DNA of 62,471 nt, filler included. It is 7 parts of 7 records of this genome, joined end to end, with 100 filler letters (N's around TTAATTAATTAA, not from the genome) between each part and the next. Parts side by side here need not be neighbours in the genome. Positions count along the whole stretch, not along the records: positions 38,068 to 62,471 come from SRR20825010_2789; 6 more parts are not named here. One strand, 5' to 3'. A program made the position numbers and the translations under genes. How positions within the stretch are numbered: position 1 is the stretch's first letter; the number at the start of each line of letters is the position of its first letter. The notes beneath the pieces are model-generated. The model saw only the letters and a list, made by a program, of their open reading frames with translations, was not told the DNA's origin and did no database searches. Below, piece after piece: positions 243 through 62,471 of the stretch.

Positions 243-461
243 TCAGATTTCGTTGGCCGCCTGCCAGGAGATGCGACCGATTTCACTGCGCGCCAGACCA
301 AGATCGGCAAGGTCACGGTTGCTGAGCGATGCCAGCTCATTATAGGTTTCGCGGTAGACTTTGCGGCGCGCGGCGCGGGCCTGCAGGGCCTCTACCAAAT
401 TGGCAAATCGTGCGCCCAAACCGCCGTGGGCTTTGGTGATGTTCGCAGTTGCAAGTGCCAT
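243..461 (-). CDS. DUF1127 small Arg-rich RNA-binding protein (CcaF1-like)
   Basis: 72 aa with RRKVYRETYNELASLSNRDLADLGLARSEI signature; GAGG RBS upstream. Confidence 0.9.
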   Translation of the reverse strand: MALATANITKAHGGLGARFANLVEALQARAARRKVYRETYNELASLSNRDLADLGLARSEIGRISWQAANEI

Positions 462-503
462 TGTTTCGGTGCCTCAGTGTTTGTGTTCGTTTGGTTGCGC
501 TAA

Positions 504-531
504 ACATGAGGCAAATGCTGCAGCTGCACAA
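504..531 (-). promoter_or_regulatory. Putative RpoH-type promoter of the DUF1127-sRNA operon
   Basis: Minus strand TTG-N17-CCTCATGT; the Rhodobacter homologous operon is RpoHI/II dependent. Confidence 0.5.
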
Positions 532-553
532 TGGACGGATAGGCAATGCCGCC

Positions 554-568
554 ATGCAGAAATTGCAT
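554..568. promoter_or_regulatory. LysR-type palindrome ATGC-N7-GCAT
   Basis: ATGCAGAAATTGCAT (T-N11-A) just upstream of the putative promoter. Confidence 0.45.
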
Positions 569-683
569 ATGAATGATGTTCATTTTTTCGTCGAGCGCCC
601 TATGGATGCGCAAAATGATGGATGTGGGTTGTGTTGCCGTGGCGTCATCGCCACCCGAAATGGAATGTAAACGAGGAAGAATC

Positions 684-1748
684 ATGTCTGAGGTCAAGAC
701 AGCCGTCGAAACAGTGCTGAAACAGGTGGAATTGCCGGATGGTGGAAACCTGATTTCCAGAGACATGATTCGAGCCTTGCGGGTGGATGACGGGGTTGTG
801 CGCTTTGTCATTGAGGCGCCAAGCGCCGAGTCGGCCAAACGGATGGAGCCGTTGCGGCAGGTGGCAGAGCGGGCGGCGGCCTCTGTCGCTGGTGTGACCT
901 CTGCCAGTGCGGTGCTCAGCGCGCCGACCGCCGGCAAAGCGCCGCCGCAATTGAAGGTGGGCGGTCATGCCAAACCGCAAGAGGGCGTAATGAAGCCCGC
1001 AGGCGTCAAGACGATCCTTGCCATTGGGTCGGGCAAGGGCGGTGTCGGCAAATCCACAGTTTCGGCCAATCTCGCGGTGGCGCTGGCGCGGGCGGGCAAA
1101 CGGGTGGGCCTGTTGGATGCGGATATTCATGGCCCCAGTCAGCCGCGCATGTTCGGATTGACCGCAAAACCTGCCAGCCCGGACGGCAAGACGATCATCC
1201 CGCTGGAGGCGCATGGCGTCACGGTCATGTCGATCGGGTCGATGCTGGCCGAGGATAAGGCGGTGGTCTGGCGCGGGCCGATGCTGATGGGGGCGTTGCA
1301 GCAGATGCTGATGCAGGTGGATTGGGGCATCAAGGATGTGCTGATTGTCGACCTGCCGCCGGGCACCGGGGATGTGCAACTGTCGTTGTGTCAGAAATCT
1401 GAGGTGGCGGGGGCGATTGTGGTCTCGACTCCGCAAGATGTGGCGTTGCTGGATGCGCGCAAGGCGCTGGATGCGTTTGCGACGCTGAACACGCCAGTGT
1501 TGGGGCTGATCGAGAACATGGCGGTGTTCACCTGCCCGCATTGCGGCAAGGACAGTCATATCTTTGGTCATGGTGGTGTGGTGACAGAGGCCGAGAAGAT
1601 GGGACTGCCGCTGTTGGCGCAGTTGCCAATTGATCTGGACACCCGGCTGGGCGGCGACGGCGGTCAGCCGATTGCACTGGGCGATAGTGCGATGGCGCAG
1701 TCCTATGCGCAGCTGGCGGATCGGTTGATCAAAGGCGGGATCGTTTGA
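684..1748 (+). CDS. apbC: Mrp/NBP35 Fe-S cluster carrier ATPase (ApbC)
   Basis: [32 protein letters not shown] and CPHC motifs; GAGGA RBS before ATG 684. Confidence 0.93.
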
Positions 1749-1879
1749 TCCCTGCCGGGCGGGATCGTCTGATCGCTGCCGGTGCTGGCGCGCCTGCGGC
1801 GCGGGTTTGGGTATTTGGACAAAGAAGAAGCCGGGGCGGGGCCTGTTGGTCCCGTCCGTTGCATTTTGGGCGGAGGGTG

Positions 1880-3028
1880 TCAGGCCGCCTTTTGCAGGTG
1901 CAGGAACAGGTCGGTGATCAGGGCCGCCGGGTCGATGTTCACGGCGCGGGCGTGGCGGGCGCGGTCGCTAGCCTCTTGTGAGACATTGGCCCAACGGCGG
2001 CCCGCTGCGGGATCGGGGGCGAGGCGGGTCAGCATATCGCCCTCTCCGCTCATGATTTCGGGAGGGGGGCAGCCGGTGACGCCGGTGCGTGCGAGGCGGG
2101 CGGCCAGTTGGTCGGCCAGCGTCAGCACCAGATCAAGGCGCGATTCCTTTCCCTTGCCCGCGCAGCTGTCCGCCAATGACAGCAGGGCGGCGCGGTCGAG
2201 GGCGGGCAGGCCGGAAAGCAGTTTCAGGATTTCGCGATACAGAGCCAGCCCGTCGAAGGTCAGCAGGCGCATGGCCGCGCCGACGGACCCTTCGGCAAGG
2301 GTGGTCAGGGGAGCGACGTCATTGGCGGCGACCTCTGCCCCGGCTTGGGCCAGTGCTTGAGCCATGTCCTCCGGGGGCAGTGGGGCAAGGCGCAGGGTGC
2401 GGCAACGGGAGCGGATTGTGGGCAGCAGGCGGGCGGGTTGGTGGCTGAGCAGCAAGAGCGTGGTGCGGGCGGGCGGCTCTTCGAGCATTTTCAGCAGGGC
2501 GTTGGCGGCCTGATTGGTCATCTCATCGGCGCTGTCGACGATGACGACGCGGCGCCCGCCATCCGCCGCCGAGAGGCCGAAGAACGCGTTGAGCTTGCGG
2601 ATTTCATCGACGCGGATAACGTCAGAGAAGCGGCCCTCTTTCAGCGCCTTGTCGCGTTCCGTGTCGGTGGAGCCGGCGCCGCCTCGGCGCAGCAGGAACA
2701 GGCCGGGTTCCGACAGGGCCAGCATCCGGCGGGCGACGGGGTGTTCGGGGTCGATATGCAGGGTGTCGGGCGGGGGCGGCGCACCGAAGAGGCCGTCACC
2801 CTCATCCGGGGGCGTCGCCAGAAGAAAGCGTGCGATTTCCCATGCCAGAGTCGCCTTGCCGGTGCCGCGCGGTCCGGTCAGCAGCCAGCCGTGGTGCAGG
2901 CGGCCCGAGGTGTAGGCGGTCAGAAAGGTCTGCTCTGCCTCGGATTGGCCGATGACGCGCGCGGTTTCGCGCGGGTGCGGCGCGCCGGTCAGGCGGTCCG
3001 GTTCGGGCAGGTCGGCGAGGTCACTCAT
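1880..3028 (-). CDS. holB: DNA polymerase III subunit delta prime
   Basis: HGWLLTGPRGTGKATLA, AANALLKMLEEPP, TIRSRC; follows tmk with ATGA overlap. Confidence 0.93.
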   Translation of the reverse strand: MSDLADLPEPDRLTGAPHPRETARVIGQSEAEQTFLTAYTSGRLHHGWLLTGPRGTGKATLAWEIARFLLATPPDEGDGLFGAPPPPDTLHIDPEHPVARRMLALSEPGLFLLRRGGAGSTDTERDKALKEGRFSDVIRVDEIRKLNAFFGLSAADGGRRVVIVDSADEMTNQAANALLKMLEEPPARTTLLLLSHQPARLLPTIRSRCRTLRLAPLPPEDMAQALAQAGAEVAANDVAPLTTLAEGSVGAAMRLLTFDGLALYREILKLLSGLPALDRAALLSLADSCAGKGKESRLDLVLTLADQLAARLARTGVTGCPPPEIMSGEGDMLTRLAPDPAAGRRWANVSQEASDRARHARAVNIDPAALITDLFLHLQKAA

Positions 3029-3672
3029 GCCGGGCACGCGGGCAGGTAGGGGGTGACGGTATCGAGGATTTCTGTCGCGACGGTGGTGATGTCGCGGTTG
3101 CCGTCGATCACGCGAAAGCGGTCGGGGTGATCCTGCGCCAGAGCCAGAAAGCCGTCGCGCATCTGTTGTTGCAGGGCGAGGCCAAAGTCCTCGAACCGTT
3201 CTTCATCGGTGGCGCGCGCCTTGGCGCGGGAGAGGCCTGCATCGGCAGGCATGTCCACCAATAGGGTCAGATCCGGCTCAACCCCGATCATCAGGTTGTG
3301 CAGGGCGTCGACCTTGTCGCGCAGGCCGCCTCGGCCCTGATACATGCGGGTCGAGTCGGCAAAACGGTCGCAGATCACAACGCGGCCCGCGTCCAGCGCG
3401 GGTCGGATGACCCGTTCAAGGTGATCGCGGCGCGCGGCGGTGAACAGCAGCAATTCGGTTTCGGCGGACCAGCGATCCGGGTCGCCCTGCAGGACCAGCG
3501 CGCGGATTTCCTCTGCCCCCGGGCTGCCGCCGGGTTCGCGGGTCAGGACGGGGTCCAGCCCCCGATTGCGCAGGGTTTCGGACAGGCGGCGGGCCTGGGT
3601 GGATTTACCAGAGCCGTCGATGCCCTCAAAACTGATGAAAAGGCCCGGCCAAGGCCTGTTCGTCTCATTCAC
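3025..3672 (-). CDS. tmk: Thymidylate kinase
   Basis: FEGIDGSGKSTQ, TREPGG and CDRFADST motifs. Confidence 0.95.
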   Translation of the reverse strand: MNETNRPWPGLFISFEGIDGSGKSTQARRLSETLRNRGLDPVLTREPGGSPGAEEIRALVLQGDPDRWSAETELLLFTAARRDHLERVIRPALDAGRVVICDRFADSTRMYQGRGGLRDKVDALHNLMIGVEPDLTLLVDMPADAGLSRAKARATDEERFEDFGLALQQQMRDGFLALAQDHPDRFRVIDGNRDITTVATEILDTVTPYLPACPA

Positions 3673-4835
3673 ATTGCGTCCCCGGCGTCTTCGGAAAAGC
3701 GTTTGATCAGCAGGCTGCTGACGGTCATGATCCGGTCGACAAAGCCGCCTGCATCTACCTTTTCGGCGGCGACCAGCGGCACGCGTGTTTCGGGCAGACC
3801 TTCGGGTTGGATGATCAATTCGGCCAGTTTCTGACCTTTGGCCACAGGGGCCTCGATCGGGCCGGTATAGACCACTTCGGCCTTGATGCCGCCCGCTGTC
3901 ATGGTGGGCAGCAGCAGGGTCACATCCTTTTCAGCGACAAGATGCACCTCATCGGCGGAGCCCATCCAGACCTCGGCGGTGGCGACGCTTTTGTCCTTGG
4001 TCACAACCGTCTGTTCGGCAAATTGGCGAAAGGCCCAGTTGACGATGGCCTCTGCCTCTTCGGCGCGGGCGCGGGTGCTGTCCAATCCGGTGATGGCAAA
4101 GACCACGCGGCGGTTGCCGTTGGTGGCACTGCCAACAAGGCCATAGCCCGCCTCTTGGGTGTGGCCGGTTTTCAGCCCGTCCGCGCCGATGCCCAGCCCC
4201 AACAGCGGGTTGCGGTTGTTGACGTTCGACGGCGCGCGGCCGTCAAACTCGAAAACCCGTTCCGAGAACATCGGATAAAACTCGGGGAAATCGGAGATGA
4301 TGAGATTGGCCAGCAAGACCAGATCGCGCATCGACATGGCGTGCCCCTGCGCGGGCCAACCAGAGGCGTTCTTGAAGGTTGAGGAAGTCATGCCAAGCTG
4401 TTGCGCGCGCTGAGTCATAAGACGGGCAAAGCCGCCCTCTGTGCCGTCGGGAGACAGCGCCTCTGCCAGCACGACACAGGCATCGTTGCCGGACAGGACA
4501 ATGACGCCGCGCAGAAGGTCCTCGACCTTGACCCGGTCGGTGGTGTCCAGAAACATGGTCGAGCCGCCAAAGGACATGGCGTGGGCCGAGACCGGCAACC
4601 GTTCGTCCCGTTGCAGGCGGCCATCGCGGAGTGCCTCAAACGCGATGTAAAGTGTCATGAGCTTTGACATGGACGCGGGCGGCAGCGCCTGATCGGCCTC
4701 TTTGGTCAGCAAGACCGTGCCGGTGGTCTGATCCAGCACAAAGGCGGCCCTTGCGCGTGTGTCAAAGGCCATGGACGCCGTGGCGGCAAAGACCAGTGCT
4801 GTGGCGGCCAGGAGGCTGCGGGACATGATGCTCAT
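3669..4835 (-). CDS. D-alanyl-D-alanine carboxypeptidase (PBP5/6 family)
   Basis: Signal peptide; SMSK (SxxK), SGN and KTG motifs; PBP5 C-terminal domain. Confidence 0.92.
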   Translation of the reverse strand: MSIMSRSLLAATALVFAATASMAFDTRARAAFVLDQTTGTVLLTKEADQALPPASMSKLMTLYIAFEALRDGRLQRDERLPVSAHAMSFGGSTMFLDTTDRVKVEDLLRGVIVLSGNDACVVLAEALSPDGTEGGFARLMTQRAQQLGMTSSTFKNASGWPAQGHAMSMRDLVLLANLIISDFPEFYPMFSERVFEFDGRAPSNVNNRNPLLGLGIGADGLKTGHTQEAGYGLVGSATNGNRRVVFAITGLDSTRARAEEAEAIVNWAFRQFAEQTVVTKDKSVATAEVWMGSADEVHLVAEKDVTLLLPTMTAGGIKAEVVYTGPIEAPVAKGQKLAELIIQPEGLPETRVPLVAAEKVDAGGFVDRIMTVSSLLIKRFSEDAGDAM

Positions 4836-5015
4836 GGATACCCCTTTGAGTCGGTTGTGCGTCACCCTTGGCGCTTATCGCCCATGTGGCGCGCGCTGTC
4901 ATCCCGATGGGTGGTCAATCGGTGGGGATTTGCGCGCAAGAGCCCGCGCCGGGGGGCTGGTGCGTGTTCCTTTGCCCCAGCCGCCTTAGGGCGCAGGTGC
5001 TTCAATCCCGGTCCG

Positions 5016-5911
5016 TCACCCTTTTTCCAGTAGCCGTTCGATCGATCCCAGCAGTTCCACCCGCGGGACCGGCTTCATCAGGCGGATATCGTCGGCCCGC
5101 AGGCCATTGCCGTGCACTGTTGCCTCACTGGCGTAGCCAGACATGAAAATGACCGGTAGGTCGGCCTCGAGCGCCCGGCAGGCGCGGGCAAGGTCCGGGC
5201 CGCGCATCTCTCCGGGTATGACCACATCCGTGAGCAGCAAATCATAGGATCTGTTTGCCTTGAACAGGTCATAGGCATCCTGTCCATTGGTGGCCGCATC
5301 GACCGTGTAACCGGCAGAGGTCAAGGTGCGCACGATCATCGAGAGCACCTCTAGTTGATCCTCGGCGATCAGAATCCGCGCCAGCCCGGTTGCCTCTGGC
5401 TGCCCGCTGTCGGGGGGGGCGGATTGCGCAACCGGCTCTGCCTGATCCGGGGAATCGAGCGCGGGGAAGAACATCTTGATGCTGGTCCCAACGTCGATCT
5501 CGGAATAGATCCGGACAAATCCACGGCTTTGTTTGACAAACCCCTGAACCATGGAAAGTCCAAGACCGCTGCCGACGGAGCTGTCCTTGCTCGAGACAAA
5601 GGGTTCGAACACGGTTGGCAAAAGATCCTCGGGGATGCCAGTGCCGGTGTCTGTGACCGCCAGCATCACATACCTGCCGGGCGGCACGTCTTCTTCGCGG
5701 TCGATGATATAGTCGGAATCGATGCGGACATTACTGGTTTCGATGGTCAGTTTGCCACCGTCGGGCATGGCGTCGCGGGCATTGACGACGGTGTTGACCA
5801 GCGCGCTTTGCAGGCTGGCCGGGTCCAGTTCGGCCTGCCAGAGCCCGTGTTGCAGATTGGTTTCCATTTCGATGCTGGTCGGGATCGCGCGGGCCAGCCA
5901 CGCCTCGGTTT
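5016..5911 (-). CDS. Hybrid sensor histidine kinase/response regulator, 3' part (5' end lost at contig edge)
   Basis: VNARDAMPDGG, DTGTGI and GSGLGL HATPase boxes, then a receiver domain (AEDQ, LLTDVVIPG, FMSGY, LMKP). Confidence 0.88.
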
Positions 5912-6011
5912 NNNNNNNNNNNNNNNNNNNNNNNNNNNNNNNNNNNNNNNNNNNNTTAATTAATTAANNNNNNNNNNNNNNNNNNNNNNNNNNNNNNNNN
6001 NNNNNNNNNNN
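5912..6011. other. Artificial contig linker
   Basis: N-run, TTAATTAATTAA (stops in all frames), N-run. Confidence 0.98.
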
Positions 6012-6167
6012 ATCGAGGATCAGCCGCAGGATCGTTGATTTGCCGACACCTGACCGCCCCAAAAGGCACGTCCATTGCGCGCCGGGGATCTGCAGATCCG
6101 CGTTGAACAGAACCCGGTCACCGATCCGGTGCTGGCCCTTCAACGTGATCCCCGGCGATGTATTCAT
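6012..6167 (-). CDS. ABC transporter ATP-binding protein, 5' fragment (ThiZ-like)
   Basis: Walker A GRSGVGKST; overlaps the tenA stop; cut by linker. Confidence 0.75.
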
Positions 6168-6844
6168 GCGCCGTTCAGTCCCATTTGCCAGAATCCGACT
6201 TCCAGTTTCGTCGCTTTGCCAAACCTGCCCCGCAGGGTTTCGGCACGCGGCGACTGCGACAAATCACCGATCCGGCGCGCAACGGCATTGTCGATCATGG
6301 CACCAACATTGGCACAAACCGCCTGATAGCCGGGGTCCGCATAGGTCGCAATCCAGGCGGCATAGGGCGTGTCGCGGGTTTTGCAGCGCGCCAACCGCAA
6401 ACCGATTTCGCCGTACCCCATGACGCAAGGCGCCAATGCCGCCATGAGATCCAGAAAGTCGCCTTGAACCCCCGCGTCCATCACGTAACGCGTGTAGGCC
6501 AGATTTTCGACAGCTTCCGGGGCGGCGAACAATGTAGCCTCGTCAATGCCTTCAGCGGCGCATGTCTTGACATGCAGCGACATCTCTTGATTGACCAATG
6601 CGTCGACCGTTCCGGCGCAAATCTTCATTTCCTCAAGGGTTTCGGATTTGACCACGGCCAGCGACCACGCGCGGGCAAAATGGATCAGAAAAACATAGTC
6701 CTGGATCAGGTAGTGCAGGAATGCAGCGCGCGGCAGGGTGCCGTCACCCAGCCCCTCGACAAAGGCGTGATGCGTGTAGTCGCGCCATGCGTCACCGGCC
6801 CCCGCACGCCACAGCGCGAAGGTTTTTCCATAATCGGGCACCAT
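6164..6844 (-). CDS. tenA: Thiaminase II / aminopyrimidine aminohydrolase
   Basis: YLIQDYVFL, PCVMGY (catalytic Cys), WIATY, LEVGFW. Confidence 0.9.
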   Translation of the reverse strand: MVPDYGKTFALWRAGAGDAWRDYTHHAFVEGLGDGTLPRAAFLHYLIQDYVFLIHFARAWSLAVVKSETLEEMKICAGTVDALVNQEMSLHVKTCAAEGIDEATLFAAPEAVENLAYTRYVMDAGVQGDFLDLMAALAPCVMGYGEIGLRLARCKTRDTPYAAWIATYADPGYQAVCANVGAMIDNAVARRIGDLSQSPRAETLRGRFGKATKLEVGFWQMGLNGA

Positions 6845-38067: not shown

Positions 38068-39113
38068 GTATATACCACCAAGGTGTTCTCGTCCAAGCCG
38101 GTTTCCTCCAAGTAGTCCAAAATCCGTCCTATACCCTCATCAACCGATTTTACGGTGGCTAAATACTCGTGTAGATACCGTTGCCCCTTCCATTTCGCCA
38201 ATTCCTTTCCATGAAGGTCAGCTTCATAAAAGGCATTGTTTTTCGGTAGATAGGCTTCGTCCCAAATTTTTCGTTGTTCTGGGGTCATCCGCTCAAAATC
38301 GGTTGTCCATGGATTATGGGCCAAATCGGTACTTCCGAGACCATCGCTCATTTTTAGATCATGCCCTTCGTACATATCCTTGTATATGGTCTGTTGTTGC
38401 TCGGCAGCCGCAGTTTGATTTTCGAACTCAGGAAAATAGGTATCGGGCAAAGGAAACGTGATGGAATCGTAAACATTTAAATGGCGTAAGGCCGGCATCC
38501 AATTTCGGTGAGGGGCTTTGTGGTGCACCATCAAATAAAAAGGTTTTTGGCCATCTTTTCTTTCTTGAAGCCACTCCAAACTTTTATCAGTGATCAAATC
38601 CGTGGCATAGCCTTCGACCACGGTGGTGTCTTCTCCTTGGATAAATTCAGGATTATAATAGTTCCCTTGATCATTGAGAATATCCCAATAATCAAACCCA
38701 GTTGGTTTGCCATGCAGATGCCATTTGCCGACAATGGCGGTCTCATATCCTAGCTTTTTCAAATGTTTTGGTAAGGTAGGTTGACTGTTGTCAAACCGTT
38801 CACCGTTCATCCGAAACCCGTTGATATGACTGTGTTTTCCTGTCAATATAACCGCTCTACTTGGCCCGCAAATGGAATTGGTACAGAAGTTATTCTGAAA
38901 AATGGCCCCATTCTTGGCAATCCTGTCAATATTTGGGGTCGGAGCTAATTTTCCCAACTCATGGTTATAGGCACTGATAGCCTGATAGGCATGATCATCC
39001 GACATTATAAAAATGATGTTGGGAGGACCTATGGCAAGCTCTTCTTTAGGTTTTTCTTTCTGTTTGCAAGAAACGATAAGGAATAATCCAAGAAGTGTTA
39101 ATCCAATGCGCAT
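38068..39113 (-). CDS. Formylglycine-dependent S1 sulfatase lipoprotein (3' end cut)
   Basis: Lipobox IVSC; MSDDH, CGPSRAVILTG (CxPxR), GKWHL, HKAPHRNW. Confidence 0.9.
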
Positions 39114-57118: not shown

Positions 57119-60100
57119 TTATAGATTAACTTTTCCCTTAAGTTCGTTGAATTGGGCCAGCAATTCTTGATAACGGTCTTTTTCCTCTTGTCCAGGTTCT
57201 TTGTCCGCACTACTTAAAATATAATATAGATACGAAATTTGAGCTACCATAACCACTTCGGGATAGGCTCCTTCATCGTTTTTTAGCTCCTTTAAAACAT
57301 CTTTATAGGGCTGAAGCTGGGCTTCGCTCGCATTTGACTTTTCCAACTCCTTAATCTTCTTTTCGACCTTATCCTGAAATTTTCGAGTTTCCGACAACAA
57401 ATCAATTACCTTAAACTGAAGTTCCTGTTGCTCCTTCATGTTGGCCAAAGAAATTCCGTCTTCTTCAAGCTTCGGGTCCATGAGCACTTCAAAACTTTTC
57501 TCGAGTGATTGCTCCCCTACGGTGAGTTTCGCGGTATACGTGCCGGGCAATACCATAGGACCATTTCCAAATCTCCTTCTTTTATTTTGGTCCCATGCTC
57601 CTTTTTGTTGCATGTTCCACTCAAAACGATTGAGTCCCTTTTTAGCTTCCAATTTCTCGTTCATATAAACAAAAGTCATGCTAAGGCTCATGTCCTCGAC
57701 CAGCTCCGTAGCGGCCTTCAATTTTGTGGAATCGCTTACAATAGTCGAAACTTCTTTTCCTTGAGCATCCAAAATCTGTAGACTGATTCCTTCCTCTATA
57801 TCCGATGGTAGGTAGTAATCAATAATTACGCTGGTAGATGGGTATTGTGGAAAGTCTCCACCGCCCCACGGAGTCTGGTACCTGTATGTATCATCAGGTT
57901 TAAACAAAACCGGAGTCTCTCCCAATTGTGTAATGTTTTCATCGGTTAAGGTGGTAACTTTATCCAGAATCCAAAAGCCACGTCCCATAGTACTTAAAAT
58001 CAAATCTCCACGGAACAAAATGATATCGGTAATCGGTGTCACGGGCAGATTTTGTTGGAATTTTTTCCATGACCCGCCATCATCAAAAGAAACAAACATT
58101 CCGTACTCGGTACCGGCATACAAAAGCCCCTTGCGTAAGGGGTCCTCTCGCAATACCCTTGCCGTATGGTCGGATGGTATCCCGTTGGATTCGGTACTGA
58201 TCAGCTCCCAGCTTTCGCCATAATTATCGGTTTTGTAGAAGTAAGGCGTGGTATCTCCCAATAAATGGCGATCTACAGCGATGTAGGCAGTTGCCGGGTC
58301 AAACTGTGATGGTTCCACGGACTCTACCCTACCGCCCTTTGGTAATTTTTTAGGTGTAACGTTCTTCCAAGTGGAACCACCATCTTTCGTGACCGAAATG
58401 ACACCATCGTTGGACCCTGTCCATATCACACCTTTGCTTATCTTGGATTCCCTGATGGAATATAGCGTACTGTAATATTCTTCACCGGTAATGTCCCTTG
58501 TTATGGGGTTACCAGAAATCACTTGTTTATCAGGGTCGTTCTCCGTTAGGTCTGGAGATATGATTTCCCAGTTTTTACCTCCATCATTTGTTTTATGTAG
58601 AAATTGGGAGCCCATGTACACCACTTCAGGGTCGAATGGGGAAACATGGATAGGCGCCACACGTTGGAACCTATACTTTAAATCTTTAGGGTTATGCCCG
58701 TAAATGTTGGATGCCCCGATGGAATATTCACGGCTTTGCCCTGTTTTTTTACTGTACACGCTAAAGCGTCCCTTACAGTTGTTGTAAACGATATAATGAT
58801 TGCCCGGCATTGGGATTACTGGCCCGGTTTCACATCCTCCAACATCCATCATTATACTTCCATTGGCAGGGGAAGTTGCTGTGGGCGCCATACTTGGGAT
58901 GGCTATCGTTGTGTTATCCTGCTGTGCGCCATACACCCAGTAAGGGTATTGATCATCCACCGCTACTTGATAAATCTCGGCCGTAGGCTGGTTGTATTGG
59001 GTAGACCATGTTTTTCCTCCGTTGTGGGATATATTTGCCCCACCATCGTTACATTGAACCAACAGGTCTGGGTTATCCGGATTGAGCCAAATATCATGGT
59101 TGTCTCCATGGGGAACACTCATACGCCTCCAAGATTTACCGCCATCGGTGGATTTTATCAAAGGATTGGCATTGGAATACACAATATCTGGATTGGTAGG
59201 GTCCAGCTCAATATTGGTGTAATAAAAAGGTCGGTTGACCAGTCTTTCATCATCCGAAACATGTTCAAAGGATTTACCTTGGTCTACGGATTTGTACAAT
59301 CCCGTATCTTCATTCGGTGCTTCAACAACCGCATAAAGTATTCTGGAGTCCGATGGAGAAACGGCTAAATCAATCTTTCCAATCAATCCCGTTGGAAGTC
59401 CTTCCTCCAATTTCTCCCAATTTTTTCCGCCATTAACGGATTTATAAATTCCACCTTCACTGTTCTCCCCACCTGAATCAATGGTCCAAGGGGTACGTCT
59501 TGCTTTCCAGGCAGCGGCATAGACGACATTCGGGTTTCCGGGAAGCAGTTCCAAATCGGCAAAACCTGTCTCTTCTGAAACGAACAAAACCTTTTCCCAA
59601 GTTTCGCCGCCATCCGTAGTTTTAAATATTCCTCTTTCTTTATTTGATTTGAATGCGTTTCCAATGGCGGCTACCCACACAATATTGCTATTGGTCGGGT
59701 CTATTTCCACGGCACCAATTTGGCCCGCATTTTCCAGCCCGATGTGTTCCCACGTTTTTCCGGCATCAATGGATTTGTACATTCCCTTTCCTTCAATGAT
59801 GTTGCTACGGATACCATCGGATCCTGTACCCACATAAATAATATTGGGGTCGTTGGCGGCCACTTCAATAGCTCCAATAGAAGGCGTTTTGAAAAATCCA
59901 TCGGAAATATTGTGCCAACTGGTTCCGTAGTCCTCGGTTTTCCAGACACCGGCACCGGTAGCTCCAAAATAAAAAGTACCCGGCAACATGGCTGTTCCGG
60001 TAACTGTGGTTACCCTACCTCCCCTAGCGGGACCTATGGTACGGTATTCCAAGGCTTCAAAATCTTGTGCAAAGGTGGCACAACTCAATAAAAATGTAAA

Positions 60101-60133
60101 AAGGAAATAAGATAAGCGCTGTTTCAAAGTCAT
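57119..60133 (-). CDS. VPS10/BNR-repeat beta-propeller protein (putative glycosyl hydrolase)
   Basis: Signal peptide; RTIGPARGGRV; many SxDGGxTW Asp-boxes; C-terminal coiled coil. Confidence 0.85.
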   Translation of the reverse strand: MTLKQRLSYFLFTFLLSCATFAQDFEALEYRTIGPARGGRVTTVTGTAMLPGTFYFGATGAGVWKTEDYGTSWHNISDGFFKTPSIGAIEVAANDPNIIYVGTGSDGIRSNIIEGKGMYKSIDAGKTWEHIGLENAGQIGAVEIDPTNSNIVWVAAIGNAFKSNKERGIFKTTDGGETWEKVLFVSEETGFADLELLPGNPNVVYAAAWKARRTPWTIDSGGENSEGGIYKSVNGGKNWEKLEEGLPTGLIGKIDLAVSPSDSRILYAVVEAPNEDTGLYKSVDQGKSFEHVSDDERLVNRPFYYTNIELDPTNPDIVYSNANPLIKSTDGGKSWRRMSVPHGDNHDIWLNPDNPDLLVQCNDGGANISHNGGKTWSTQYNQPTAEIYQVAVDDQYPYWVYGAQQDNTTIAIPSMAPTATSPANGSIMMDVGGCETGPVIPMPGNHYIVYNNCKGRFSVYSKKTGQSREYSIGASNIYGHNPKDLKYRFQRVAPIHVSPFDPEVVYMGSQFLHKTNDGGKNWEIISPDLTENDPDKQVISGNPITRDITGEEYYSTLYSIRESKISKGVIWTGSNDGVISVTKDGGSTWKNVTPKKLPKGGRVESVEPSQFDPATAYIAVDRHLLGDTTPYFYKTDNYGESWELISTESNGIPSDHTARVLREDPLRKGLLYAGTEYGMFVSFDDGGSWKKFQQNLPVTPITDIILFRGDLILSTMGRGFWILDKVTTLTDENITQLGETPVLFKPDDTYRYQTPWGGGDFPQYPSTSVIIDYYLPSDIEEGISLQILDAQGKEVSTIVSDSTKLKAATELVEDMSLSMTFVYMNEKLEAKKGLNRFEWNMQQKGAWDQNKRRRFGNGPMVLPGTYTAKLTVGEQSLEKSFEVLMDPKLEEDGISLANMKEQQELQFKVIDLLSETRKFQDKVEKKIKELEKSNASEAQLQPYKDVLKELKNDEGAYPEVVMVAQISYLYYILSSADKEPGQEEKDRYQELLAQFNELKGKVNL

Positions 60134-60265
60134 GAGTTAGTTAGAAGTTGGTTTGTTTCCAAATCTACTAAATACCTAGCCAATCTAAAATGGTATGATA
60201 GAGGAATTACAGGCTTTATTATTTAAAACAATGTTATTTACGAATTCTACAAACTAAACTGGTCG

Positions 60266-60697
60266 TTAATCCATCCTTTCATATTTGTAGCTGCATCCTT
60301 CTATGCAGATAACACTGGTTGGGGATAAAAGAAAGTGGTCATTTTCAAATTCGATATGGAAGGTAATCAAGCCTTCTTCGTTTTCGGCTACCAGCTCCGT
60401 ATCTCCACAATCATAATCCAGTACCAGAGTTTCACCATCAAGGATATACCCTTCTTCTTTACATTCTGGGTAATTGGTCGAAGTGAAACTACCATCAGAA
60501 AGGAATTCAATTTCTTCACCATCTTCCACATCTACCCAGTATTGTGGTCCGCCCGAACTAATGTATGCCGCGGTCAATTTCCATTTTCCTAAAATGGAAG
60601 TATCTGTTGGGTTTGGAGTACCATTATTATCGTTGTTACATGCCGAAAATTGACTCAATAATACAATTACGACCAAACTCGAGATTAACTTTTCCAT
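60266..60697 (-). CDS. Lipocalin-like lipoprotein
   Basis: Lipobox FSAC; ILGKWKL; CIEGC near the C-terminus. Confidence 0.7.
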   Translation of the reverse strand: MEKLISSLVVIVLLSQFSACNNDNNGTPNPTDTSILGKWKLTAAYISSGGPQYWVDVEDGEEIEFLSDGSFTSTNYPECKEEGYILDGETLVLDYDCGDTELVAENEEGLITFHIEFENDHFLLSPTSVICIEGCSYKYERMD

Positions 60698-60753
60698 AGG
60701 TTCCTTTTTGTCTAAAGATGAGGATTTGTCAATTAGTTGCGTCATCCAAGCCT

Positions 60754-61791
60754 CTACTCCAAGTCTTTAAAGATCCTTGATTCAGTAGTCCCCTTTCGAA
60801 AAATATGGTGCTGCGTAGCAGTAAAATAGTCCCTAAAAATCTGATTCAGTAGGTGACCTTCTGTACTGGCCAAAATTCCCAAACTTGGGTAGACCATCAA
60901 AATACTTTGAGAAATCAATTGTACCGATTTAGATGCTTCATGATGAACTCGATTTATGAACTTTTCGGTAAACCCGCGGCCTTGTTCAATACCTTCTTCA
61001 ATTTCTTTGGCATAGTCTATCAACAAGGTATCCGCCCTTTTTAGATTTGAAACGAGTGGGACGGTATATTCTTCAGACGCGCTTACATTTCTGGCTTCTT
61101 CCAGAAAATGCTCTGCCATTCCAACATAATTGACCCACAAAGTAAGATCGGCAAACAACGAAAAATGGATCTTAAAAATCGGATGTGGCTGATGCACTTG
61201 GTTATAGACAAAACTATATTTTTCATGAACCCATTTACTTTCCACTTTAAATGATTCCGTTGCGGTTGCCTTTAAACCCATAGTTTCCCAATCCCGTATA
61301 ATTTCTACTTGACTTTTTTCCAATACAAAGGAGCGCACCATGGGCGTACCGTTCTCTTGAAGAATATCATTGCCATTCTCCTGAATTTTTGCGTTTAATG
61401 TGAAATGGGTAAGGTAGGGAGCACCCGTTGCGTATTTCCATGTTCCGGAAATAATATATCCTTCGGAATCCCTTTCTGCTGTTCCAAAGACGCCGCCGCT
61501 TCCCCCAAAACAAACAGGTTTTGCGGCATCGAGAAAAATATCGTCGGCTACCTCCTTTTTTAGATTCCCTATAAAAAAATTGGCTCCGCTGCACAGGGTA
61601 ACCGTCCAGCCAAGGCTACCATCTGTTTTAGCGAGCAATCGAAGTTTTTTCAGACCTTCGGAGAACGACATTTCCAGTCCCCCATACTTTTTGGGCACCC
61701 AAAGATTCCAAAGGTTTTCTTTGGCTATCCACTCCAACACTTCTTGGCTAAAAATCGGTTTTTTAAAATCCAACGCATCAAGCTCCTGCAT
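60754..61791 (-). CDS. Acyl-CoA-dehydrogenase-fold flavoprotein, likely HsaA-like hydroxylase
   Basis: VPKKYGG, DGSLGW, GTWKYATG, WETMGLKATAT, IFRDYFTATQH; starts inside the pnuC 3' end. Confidence 0.8.
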   Translation of the reverse strand: MQELDALDFKKPIFSQEVLEWIAKENLWNLWVPKKYGGLEMSFSEGLKKLRLLAKTDGSLGWTVTLCSGANFFIGNLKKEVADDIFLDAAKPVCFGGSGGVFGTAERDSEGYIISGTWKYATGAPYLTHFTLNAKIQENGNDILQENGTPMVRSFVLEKSQVEIIRDWETMGLKATATESFKVESKWVHEKYSFVYNQVHQPHPIFKIHFSLFADLTLWVNYVGMAEHFLEEARNVSASEEYTVPLVSNLKRADTLLIDYAKEIEEGIEQGRGFTEKFINRVHHEASKSVQLISQSILMVYPSLGILASTEGHLLNQIFRDYFTATQHHIFRKGTTESRIFKDLE

Positions 61792-62377
61792 AGGTCTCGC
61801 TGTTTTTCTTATCAATGATTTTTTTCCATTTGATGTATCCCGAAATTGCAACGGTGAACAAGAAAGCGGTCAGCCCTGCGTAGATATACAACTCCTTGTA
61901 AATCAATAATGGGATGGAAATAAGGTTACTGATGTTCAAATAGACCCAGTTCTCAATCTTCCGTTTGGCCATCAACCACATACCGGCCCATGCAAAAGCG
62001 CAGACCACGGCATCCCAATACGGCACATCGGAATCTGTATGTTGCCCTAGCCAATAAGCCATCAAAATAAAACAGCCCAGTACAATGCCCCCAGCTATGC
62101 CATGCTCCTTTTTGGTGGAATAAGAGATGGGGGCTTCTTGTTTTTGCTTGCCCATCTTCCAATAAAACCAGCCGTAAATGCTCATGACCAGATAATACAT
62201 ATTGAGCAAGATATCGGCATATAATTGGGATTGATAGAGCACCCAAATACTAATCAAAATCGCGATAATGCCGAAAAGATAGTTGTGGATATTGTTCTGT
62301 CTGGCCAATAACACCTGAACCACCCCAAAAAGGGTTCCGATCCATTGTAACACCACGAGTTGAGAAAAGTATTCCAT
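61778..62377 (-). CDS. pnuC: PnuC-family vitamin transporter, probably thiamine-specific (PnuT-like)
   Basis: Multi-TM; LYAD, YGWFYW, PYWD, WLMAKRKIENW; TPP riboswitch upstream. Confidence 0.88.
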   Translation of the reverse strand: MEYFSQLVVLQWIGTLFGVVQVLLARQNNIHNYLFGIIAILISIWVLYQSQLYADILLNMYYLVMSIYGWFYWKMGKQKQEAPISYSTKKEHGIAGGIVLGCFILMAYWLGQHTDSDVPYWDAVVCAFAWAGMWLMAKRKIENWVYLNISNLISIPLLIYKELYIYAGLTAFLFTVAISGYIKWKKIIDKKNSETYAGA

Positions 62378-62443
62378 TCTTTTAAGTAACCTATATTTAA
62401 AATCATGGGTACCCAAATTGGAATACGGGCAAACTTGCCTAAA

Positions 62444-62471
62444 TCCCTACGCCAGCATTACCTGGATCAGG
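62444..62471 (-). promoter_or_regulatory. TPP riboswitch, 3' half (5' half outside window)
   Basis: Minus strand CCTGATCCAGGTAATGCTGGCGTAGGGA fits the THI-element P4/P5 consensus CCTGAT..G.TAAT.C..GCG.AGGGA. Confidence 0.88.

Follow-up and report, generated by a model that had tools for sequence, protein, structure and literature searches.

Most marine bacterioplankton cannot make vitamin B1 (thiamine). Among the described uptake systems, the closest to the locus treated here is the thiamine uptake operon OMthi-pnuT-tnr3 of Bacteroides, in which a thiamine pyrophosphate (TPP) riboswitch is combined with a TonB receptor, the PnuT transporter and a thiamine pyrophosphokinase (TPK), as set out in a passage of PMC5613172. 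A passage of PMC12442306 names omr1 and pnuC as the dominant B1 uptake transcripts of Bacteroidetes, and one of PMC10881298 states that several Bacteroidota populations lack described systems for B1 synthesis or transport. Here we analyse the end of a DNA stretch of 62,471 nucleotides (nt), joined from seven parts and called the window throughout, whose last part (positions 38,068 to 62,471, record SRR20825010_2789) carries half a TPP riboswitch, a pnuC gene and a gene for a flavoprotein with acyl-CoA dehydrogenase (ACAD) fold. This cassette probably marks an undescribed step in the B1 acquisition of some marine and soil Bacteroidota. As a riboswitch-flagged candidate for the missing piece, consisting of a transporter clade and an enzyme, it could help to explain the Bacteroidota said to lack described B1 systems.

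The window's own assembly is not among the genomes compared. The nearest genome, G001, is 100% identical to the window over positions 60200-62471 and stands in for it beyond the window end.

Organisation of the cassette

All elements of the cassette lie on the minus strand and follow each other, from the right-hand window end, in the order aptamer, leader, pnuC and flavoprotein gene. The 3' half of a TPP (THI-box) aptamer, made up of the P4-P5 pyrophosphate-sensor arm and the 3' strand of P1, was found with the Rfam model RF00059 at 62427-62471(-). The expression platform in the pnuC leader (62369-62443(-)) was assigned from the fold of the G001 leader and by reading the sequence. The pnuC gene (61778-62377(-); PF04973, TIGR01528) encodes a PnuC-family membrane transporter of 199 amino acids (aa) from the ATG at 62377. 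The flavoprotein gene (60754-61791(-)) encodes 345 aa with an ACAD fold and was classed as group-D flavin monooxygenase-like by profiles, PDB matches, an AlphaFold2 (AF2) model and family alignments.

A sequence-only reading of the window had placed the half-element about 66 nt before pnuC, and the distance is exactly 66 nt from the end of the aptamer's conserved AGGGA (62444) to the start codon. The same reading had put the start of the next gene 14 nt inside pnuC, which the coordinates bear out, with the flavoprotein ATG at 61791 and the pnuC stop codon at 61778-61780. The identical 14-nt overlap is found in most related loci and suggests that translation of the flavoprotein is coupled to that of pnuC. 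A 256-nt contig from a marine metatranscriptome bridges the junction of the two genes (61657-61912) with 100% identity. The hint of co-transcription that it gives is weak, as libraries of this kind may also contain DNA.

Conservation of the linkage

The linkage was followed in a species scan with one genome per species, in which at least 368 genomes encode a relative of the flavoprotein and all locus counts refer to the best 80 loci; in a family sample of 151 Flavobacteriaceae genomes, one per genus; and in a phylum sample of 401 Bacteroidota genomes. By tblastn, 77 of the 80 loci encode PnuC immediately ahead of the flavoprotein gene. A covariance model built from 62 leaders likewise matches 77 of the 80 and leaves out L033, L034 and L053 (a locus cut off within pnuC); as most of the matched leaders had served to train the model, the count is in part circular. 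When the neighbouring open reading frames were clustered all against all, the flavoprotein (80 loci) and PnuC (77 loci) formed the only clusters present in more than eight loci. No other neighbour is therefore conserved, and the cassette sits in changing surroundings.

Eight genomes of the family sample encode the flavoprotein, and the same eight have the special PnuC adjacent to it. RF00059 matches immediately 5' of pnuC in six of the seven other flavoprotein-positive genomes of this sample (48.7-62.8 bits, four of them above the Rfam gathering score), and G044 has no match at E <= 1e-4 upstream of pnuC. The phylum sample contains 25 genomes with a flavoprotein relative at E <= 1e-35. G001 aside, pnuC is adjacent in nine of the 24, with identities of 29-58% for the flavoprotein and 47-67% for PnuC, and a riboswitch match is present in all nine. 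The distant locus L105 has the order riboswitch, TonB receptor, pnuC, flavoprotein gene and type I phosphodiesterase, and is the only one with a TonB receptor inside the cassette operon.

The riboswitch, pnuC and flavoprotein gene form a strongly conserved, self-contained unit in some marine and soil Bacteroidota. The proposal that both genes are one unit behind the riboswitch holds up in the 77 of 80 loci for pnuC and for the riboswitch, in all eight carriers of the family sample for pnuC and in the nine distant genomes that have the whole trio.

The TPP riboswitch and its leader

RF00059 (model length 105, gathering score 54.3 bits) aligns its positions 61-105 to the half-element at 62427-62471(-) with 32.2 bits (E 8.4e-5; E-value scan of 62200-62471), and the match is flagged as 5'-truncated by the window end. 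A scan of the whole window at the Rfam gathering threshold gave no match, as is expected where the window holds half an aptamer. The 5' half falls outside the window; it comprises P1, P2, P3, the CUGAGA motif and, between P2' and P4, an extra hairpin. The sequence-only reading depended on the upstream DNA completing a TPP aptamer, and with the Rfam model it does so in the identical stretch of G001 (L001 3728-3834(-), model positions 1-105, 46.1 bits, E 4.7e-8). As this score is below the gathering score, a default Rfam scan misses the element, and the score is low because of the extra hairpin, which is inserted between the P2' strand (ACCC) and P4. Orthologous elements in other genomes reach 62.8, 58.7, 58.6 and 55.7 bits, over the gathering score, and 53.0, 48.7 and 35.0 bits, under it. 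Two other good TPP riboswitches of G001 are without the extra hairpin, and we regard as doubtful a 29.1-bit RF00059 match that precedes a DUF4199 gene on its contig C32.

The structure was assessed in an alignment of 62 distinct related leaders, from which identical copies, L031, L058 and the six Salegentibacter leaders with long inserts were excluded; L053 ends inside pnuC. With a structure drawn up from these same sequences, which are related to one another, pairing reaches 93.0% of the structure cells, while 500 shuffles average 86.0% and none of them was as high. Sliding the partner columns lowers the pairing to 29-59%. Compensatory changes occur at 14 of the 27 pairs, including pairs in P3 and P5, and 98.4% of cells are paired in P2, 97.1% in P3 and 99.6% in P4/P5. 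The extra hairpin is paired in 94.7% of cells and has compensatory changes at all five pairs. The motifs of the ligand pocket, CUGAGA in J3-2 and CCUGAUC...GCGUAGGGA in P4-P5, are invariant or nearly so.

In six Salegentibacter loci (L049, L066, L069, L074, L078 and L080; about 4050-4350) the extra hairpin has grown to about 70 nt, with the effect that the covariance model gives two half matches in five of the six. RF00059 may miss such elements, as possibly in G044. The riboswitch variant is useful in annotation, since standard Rfam thresholds miss it in the window species and in some relatives.

In the expression platform, a small hairpin (62428-62439) is followed by GUAUUCCA (62419-62426). 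This segment can pair without mismatch to UGGAAUAC (62369-62376), which overlaps the AUG of pnuC (62375-62377). The resulting 8-bp helix over the start codon is found, together with an inner helix, in the minimum free energy (MFE) and centroid folds of L001:3668-3846(-). By reading of the sequence, the loop stretch UUGGGUACCCAUG could pair almost throughout with CAUGGGGUGCCC, the 5' strand of the aptamer, and in other genera UCAUCUC of the leader is complementary to GAGAUGA of the aptamer. From the start-codon helix and the alternative pairing with the aptamer strand we predict a translational OFF switch with competing helices.

The motif TAnnTTTG, which we take to be the Bacteroidota -7 promoter element, occurs in 51 of the 70 loci that could be assessed, at most 45 nt ahead of the aptamer. 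It ends 8-18 nt ahead of the aptamer in 50 of them, one copy is 36 nt away, and the window species has it in the one-mismatch form TACCTTCG. In the 200 nt ahead of the flavoprotein start the motif was found in three of 65 loci, compared with seven of 195 control windows inside the gene. By this motif, no conserved internal promoter is evident, and a promoter of the flavoprotein's own, which the sequence-only reading had held against its proposal, was not seen.

The PnuC transporter

The PnuC of the window scores above the cut-offs of both PF04973 (NMN_transporter; 171.3 bits, cut-off 27.3) and TIGR01528 (96.1 bits, cut-off 42.45), and its sole PDB relative is 4QTN (1.2e-14). Members of its clade are 43-72% identical to each other and about 30% identical to the universal PnuC of the family. 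Compared with one TPK-linked PnuC, which is not a characterised PnuT, the identity is 29-33%. The cassette pnuC is under TPP riboswitch control, and no TPK gene neighbours it in the 80 loci. The canonical layout of TonB receptor, pnuT and TPK gene was seen in the G021 locus. The earlier statement that PnuT is usually paired with a TPK or a TonB receptor thus stands for that layout, and for the cassette it fails in so far as the TPK is not the partner.

A PnuC paralogue of 31-43% identity is present in 150 of the 151 genomes of the family sample. A PnuC that is 64-100% identical to that of the window occurs in nine, namely the eight flavoprotein carriers, with the two genes adjacent in each, and G031. 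The ten best matches of a PnuC profile in the phylum sample (266-371 bits) are exactly G001 and the nine genomes with an adjacent flavoprotein gene, and the genomes with the next matches, at 235 bits and below, gave no flavoprotein hit. Judged by these comparisons, the cassette PnuC appears to be a distinct subfamily, and its clade co-extensive with flavoprotein adjacency apart from G031.

PnuCs of other families scoring 180-235 bits were considered as TPK-linked bridges and rejected: their eight loci gave no riboswitch match and had no obvious TPK-sized partner pattern, Pfam not having been run on them. In L040 the pnuC gene has an internal stop.

The flavoprotein

The flavoprotein family has 1206 matches at E <= 1e-3 in 90% clusters. 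Among the 120 matches listed, identities are 55-100%, lengths are 325-347 aa, on which the choice of the start codon is based, and most members belong to Flavobacteriaceae and Roseivirga. Their names are 'acyl-CoA dehydrogenase', 'hypothetical' and, once, 'indole-3-acetate monooxygenase'. In the family alignment, columns are on average 65% identical, and some 70 of them are invariant.

All three Pfam ACAD domains score below their cut-offs: the N domain (Pfam: PF02771) with 20.0 bits (cut-off 22.9), the M domain (Pfam: PF02770) with 21.6 bits (cut-off 33.3) and the C2 domain (Pfam: PF08028) with 19.8 bits (cut-off 22.7). The best NCBIfam matches are HsaA (56.5 bits, cut-off 450), HpaH-C2 (50.8, cut-off 650) and SfnB (41.9, cut-off 430.9); DszC (24.1, cut-off 850) and a desulfinase are also among them. 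Going by these profiles, the flavoprotein is not an orthologue of any characterised group-D enzyme.

XiaF, Rv3094c and HsaA are the top PDB sequence matches. The AF2 model, built with a 46-sequence alignment, has a predicted local distance difference test (pLDDT) value of 90.0 and a predicted template modelling (pTM) score of 0.89. With Foldseek, the model matches XiaF (TMq 0.87), Rv3094c (0.86), the 3-HSA hydroxylase HsaA (0.86), 2or0 (0.88) and HpaH-C2 (0.84-0.86), and these proteins make up the listed ranks 1-18 (TMq 0.82-0.88, E down to 2e-20). Acyl-CoA dehydrogenases, MsuC, DszC and a nitrososynthase follow behind them at 0.71-0.81. The sequence-only reading had described an ACAD fold closer to HsaA-type hydroxylases, and both the NCBIfam ranking and these structural scores agree with it.

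The alignment of the family profile with Rv3094c spans the whole profile. Two motifs are common to the family, Rv3094c and XiaF: sGxWxxxxG in the beta domain and, close to the C-terminus, FRDxxTAxxH, whose histidine is presumably catalytic in the group-D class. In the ESM Atlas only the flavoprotein's own family and generic ACAD clusters were found. We therefore predict, on the strength of the model, that the flavoprotein is a group-D-like flavin oxygenase component.

In G345 a TAA lies inside the flavoprotein match. The loci L094, L096 and L101 (about 350-6350) contain a conserved set made up of a GMC oxidoreductase, an EstA-like esterase, a flavoprotein of 32-34% identity and a radical-SAM protein, without pnuC or riboswitch. 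This set may be a different pathway with the same enzyme type.

Thiamine genes of the host genomes

G001 has no ThiC, no TPK and only a 24.6-bit partial match to ThiG, and ThiL is present. In the five hosts G041, G071, G105, G119 and G145, ThiL was found in all five, and ThiC, TenA and ThiM gave no match over the cut-off in any of them. ThiE reaches at most 28.2 bits there, with half of the profile covered, compared with 180.6 bits in G001, and ThiD (Phos_pyr_kin) at most 36.2 bits, compared with 306.3 bits for the ThiD of G001. The five hosts cannot join the two halves of thiamine, so that the product of the cassette must enter metabolism as intact thiamine or its phosphate, and since they keep only ThiL, precursor salvage is unlikely. 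Conservation was here set against the thi genes, as the sequence-only reading had proposed, with the result that five of the eight sampled cassette hosts are without ThiC, ThiM, TenA and ThiE or ThiD of family grade. That reading had suggested a thiamine analogue, a degradation product or a precursor as the substrate. An analogue or derivative with intact skeleton is possible, and a degradation product or precursor is unlikely as the general substrate, because five of the eight hosts cannot rebuild thiamine.

A TPK is present in one of the eight sampled cassette hosts (G145). A phyletic contrast was tried and set aside, as neither ThiC (none of the eight hosts against a base rate of 25 of 151) nor TPK (one of eight against 11 of 151) is informative alone.

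Two further riboswitch loci of G001 concern thiamine. On contig C2, a 71.1-bit TPP riboswitch precedes thiM-thiE-thiD-tenA-HAD hydrolase and then a PanE/ApbA-type reductase (L086 2032-6747(+)), which by its gene content would be a pure precursor-salvage operon in a genome without ThiC. On contig C44, a 45.9-bit TPP riboswitch is followed by a TonB receptor and then a Gfo/Idh/MocA oxidoreductase (L087 6644-10109(-)). The latter was considered as a second redox step and rejected, being absent from that place in G119 and G105.

Among the 151 Flavobacteriaceae genera, ThiC was found in 25 and TPK in 11, and ThiL in all six genomes checked. Downstream of the universal PnuC (150 of 151 genera) come an AAA_28 (NadR-type) kinase, DUF4301 and a small RF-1-domain gene (L117 6537-9644(-), L118 6369-9481(-), L119 8104-11755(-)), and in these three loci the PnuC gene lies 0.1-5 kb upstream of a TonB receptor controlled by a TPP riboswitch. 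Because most of these genomes are without both ThiC and TPK, the AAA_28 kinase may be the enzyme that appears to be missing from them for the step from thiamine to thiamine monophosphate; a role as nicotinamide riboside kinase is just as conceivable.

Proposed function and alternatives

With a probability of roughly 0.55, we read the locus as a B1-scarcity cassette, in which PnuC imports a thiamine-type vitamer and the flavoenzyme converts it oxidatively, thereby trapping it and making it usable. The riboswitch, the gene pair with its conservation, the fold class and the host gene content are shown by the data, whereas the working of the OFF switch, coupled translation, trapping by the enzyme and the kind of substrate are inferred, as follows. 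A dedicated promoter would drive the cassette, and the TPP riboswitch would act as an OFF switch that hides the pnuC start codon. When TPP is scarce, the leader would refold and both proteins would be made. The PnuC facilitator would let a thiamine-type compound diffuse into the cell, where a translationally coupled, cytoplasmic flavin-dependent oxygenase or oxidase (HsaA/XiaF/Rv3094c-like) would convert it. This conversion would render uptake irreversible and yield thiamine or a form usable by the cell's own kinases. The cargo would most likely have an intact pyrimidine-thiazole skeleton, as a modified, oxidisable thiamine vitamer and not as a half of the hydroxymethylpyrimidine (HMP) or thiazole type. 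On chemistry alone, it could be a thiazole-2-thione form, hydroxyethylthiamine or another C2 adduct, or a reduced thiazoline form.

The flavoenzyme sits at the operon position that the thiamine pyrophosphokinase has in canonical pnuT operons. It is conceivable, and put forward tentatively, that it carries out a new B1 salvage reaction, in which an environmental two-ring thiamine derivative is turned into usable thiamine by oxidation and this oxidation replaces phosphorylation as the trapping step of a PnuC, under a riboswitch subtype with a four-way junction. If the enzyme does convert a B1 derivative to thiamine, a new vitamer and a new reaction would be added to the B1 cycle, and the cassette would contain the first PnuC facilitator whose cargo is trapped by oxidation instead of phosphorylation.

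Several observations weigh against this proposal. The RNA contig at the gene junction may be DNA carry-over. The complete aptamer of the window species stays below the gathering score of RF00059, P1 is paired in only 65.7% of cells in the 62 leaders, and the leader fold has an unremarkable z-score of -1.89. Even with no ligand, the MFE fold contains the helix that sequesters the start codon, which makes the switching logic a prediction. No flavin reductase gene and no conserved third gene was found in the cassette at the 80 loci, a count that did not extend to a genome-wide reductase search. The host gene content was read from sampled relatives and G001, not from the window's own assembly. The linkage also has exceptions: the flavoprotein gene is without a working pnuC in three of the 80 loci, namely in L033 and L034 of Kriegella, where the flavoprotein gene stands by itself, and in L041; the other 15 of the 24 flavoprotein relatives of the phylum sample (23-34% identity) are in unrelated contexts; and G031 has the riboswitch and the special pnuC without a flavoprotein gene. 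L033, L034, L041 and G031 indicate that transporter and flavoprotein can exist apart.

Two of these exceptions may be described further. In L041 (4522-5010; Pareuzebyella sediminis) the flavoprotein gene is intact, the riboswitch is decayed (46.5 bits) and pnuC is in fragments. G031 is a ThiC-bearing genome, with the variant riboswitch on contig C40 (L116 2238-2987; 73.7 bits with model R1), and there pnuC is followed by about 680 nt that are apparently non-coding and then by an M23 peptidase gene.

The exceptions lend something to the view that the flavoprotein gene is a passenger without a functional tie to pnuC or the riboswitch, as it stands alone in three loci and its remote relatives are found elsewhere. 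This view is already disfavoured and very improbable, since the adjacency is kept down to 29% flavoprotein identity over several families while other neighbours change, the 14-nt overlap is conserved and no conserved internal promoter motif was found. Less improbable, yet unlikely, is a guarding role, in which PnuC imports plain thiamine in the manner of PnuT and the flavoenzyme oxidises antivitamins or damaged forms that enter under B1 starvation. The core of the riboswitch is that of a normal TPP sensor, ThiL-only hosts need intact thiamine anyway, the group-D enzymes Rv3094c and DszC oxidise xenobiotic sulfur compounds according to the titles of their PDB entries, and a passage of PMC5613172 presents PnuT homologues as thiamine facilitators. 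However, the hosts already have the universal PnuC and a riboswitch-controlled TonB receptor, so that there is no obvious need for a second channel for plain thiamine; the identity of the special PnuC to a TPK-linked PnuT is only about 30%; and the strict pairing with the 14-nt overlap suggests a single pathway.

Uptake of a pyrimidine or thiazole half, from which the flavoenzyme would make HMP or hydroxyethylthiazole (HET) for re-assembly, has a somewhat smaller chance than the guarding role. G001, which has the riboswitch-controlled thiM-thiE-thiD-tenA-HAD operon and no ThiC, would profit from imported halves, but to the five of eight hosts without ThiM and TenA, and with only sub-family-grade partial matches to ThiE and ThiD, the halves would be useless, and yet these hosts keep the cassette intact. 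We give a similarly small chance to a cargo outside B1 metabolism, which would be imported and oxidised to offset failing TPP-dependent enzymes, while the riboswitch would do no more than signal starvation. The sequence does not fix a ligand for the transporter or for the enzyme, and nicotinamide riboside, among other compounds, is also transported by members of the PnuC family (PMC7749635). Against this, the genes under TPP riboswitch control in the contexts seen are thiamine genes or transporters, and in L105 the pair stands behind a TonB receptor, a layout as in thiamine uptake operons.

Genes next to the cassette

A lipocalin-like lipoprotein gene (60266-60745(-)) follows about 54 nt past the flavoprotein stop when counted from its likely start MEKL (about 60699). 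It is restricted to the five closest loci and is therefore outside the conserved cassette. The next gene, at 57119-60133(-), encodes a sortilin/BNR-repeat protein of 1004 aa. Just past the right end of the window and upstream of the riboswitch, L001 3962-4972(-) encodes an outer-membrane beta-barrel-like protein of 336 aa (Phenol_MetA_deg, 38.7 bits), which is not kept in other loci.

Comparison with known systems

Compared with the group-D two-component monooxygenases (XiaF, Rv3094c, HsaA, HpaH-C2, DszC and MsuC), the flavoprotein shares the fold, with TM-scores of 0.84-0.88 to the first four. It differs in sequence (15-19% identity), in length (about 340 aa here and 365-415 aa there) and in that the cassette is without a gene for a reductase partner.

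The riboswitch has P2-P3 with CUGAGA, the P4-P5 core and the thiamine-related gene context in common with the Rfam TPP riboswitch RF00059. In the RF00059 consensus the optional stem is placed before ACCC, and P3a is located between UGAGA and P2 in a passage of Barrick and Breaker (PMC2258182), whereas the extra stem of the cassette riboswitch sits in the P2-P4 junction, after ACCC and before P4. No description of a TPP riboswitch variant with this extra hairpin was found in open-access and bioRxiv full text, and the same search gave no paper in which a gene of the ACAD-like or flavin monooxygenase type is linked to PnuC or PnuT.

With the PnuC/NadR and PnuC-plus-kinase pairs, the cassette shares the order of a facilitator gene followed by the gene for a cytoplasmic enzyme, as is also seen for the universal Flavobacteriaceae PnuC and its AAA_28 kinase. 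The partner in the cassette is a redox enzyme, unlike in the PnuC/NadR pairs, and any trapping would be by oxidation and not by phosphorylation.

The operon OMthi-pnuT-tnr3 is similar in its TPP riboswitch, in its PnuC-family inner-membrane facilitator and in the enzyme gene directly downstream, and one distant cassette locus (L105) also has a TonB receptor ahead of pnuC. In contrast to that operon, the enzyme of the cassette is an ACAD-fold flavoprotein and not a pyrophosphokinase, TPK being absent from seven of the eight sampled hosts; its PnuC belongs to a separate clade, about 30% identical to the TPK-linked PnuC; and its riboswitch has the extra hairpin. On these comparisons of sequence, we rate the cassette as a thiamine uptake operon, a known kind of system, in which the enzyme partner would be new and both the PnuC clade and the riboswitch subtype would be particular to the cassette.

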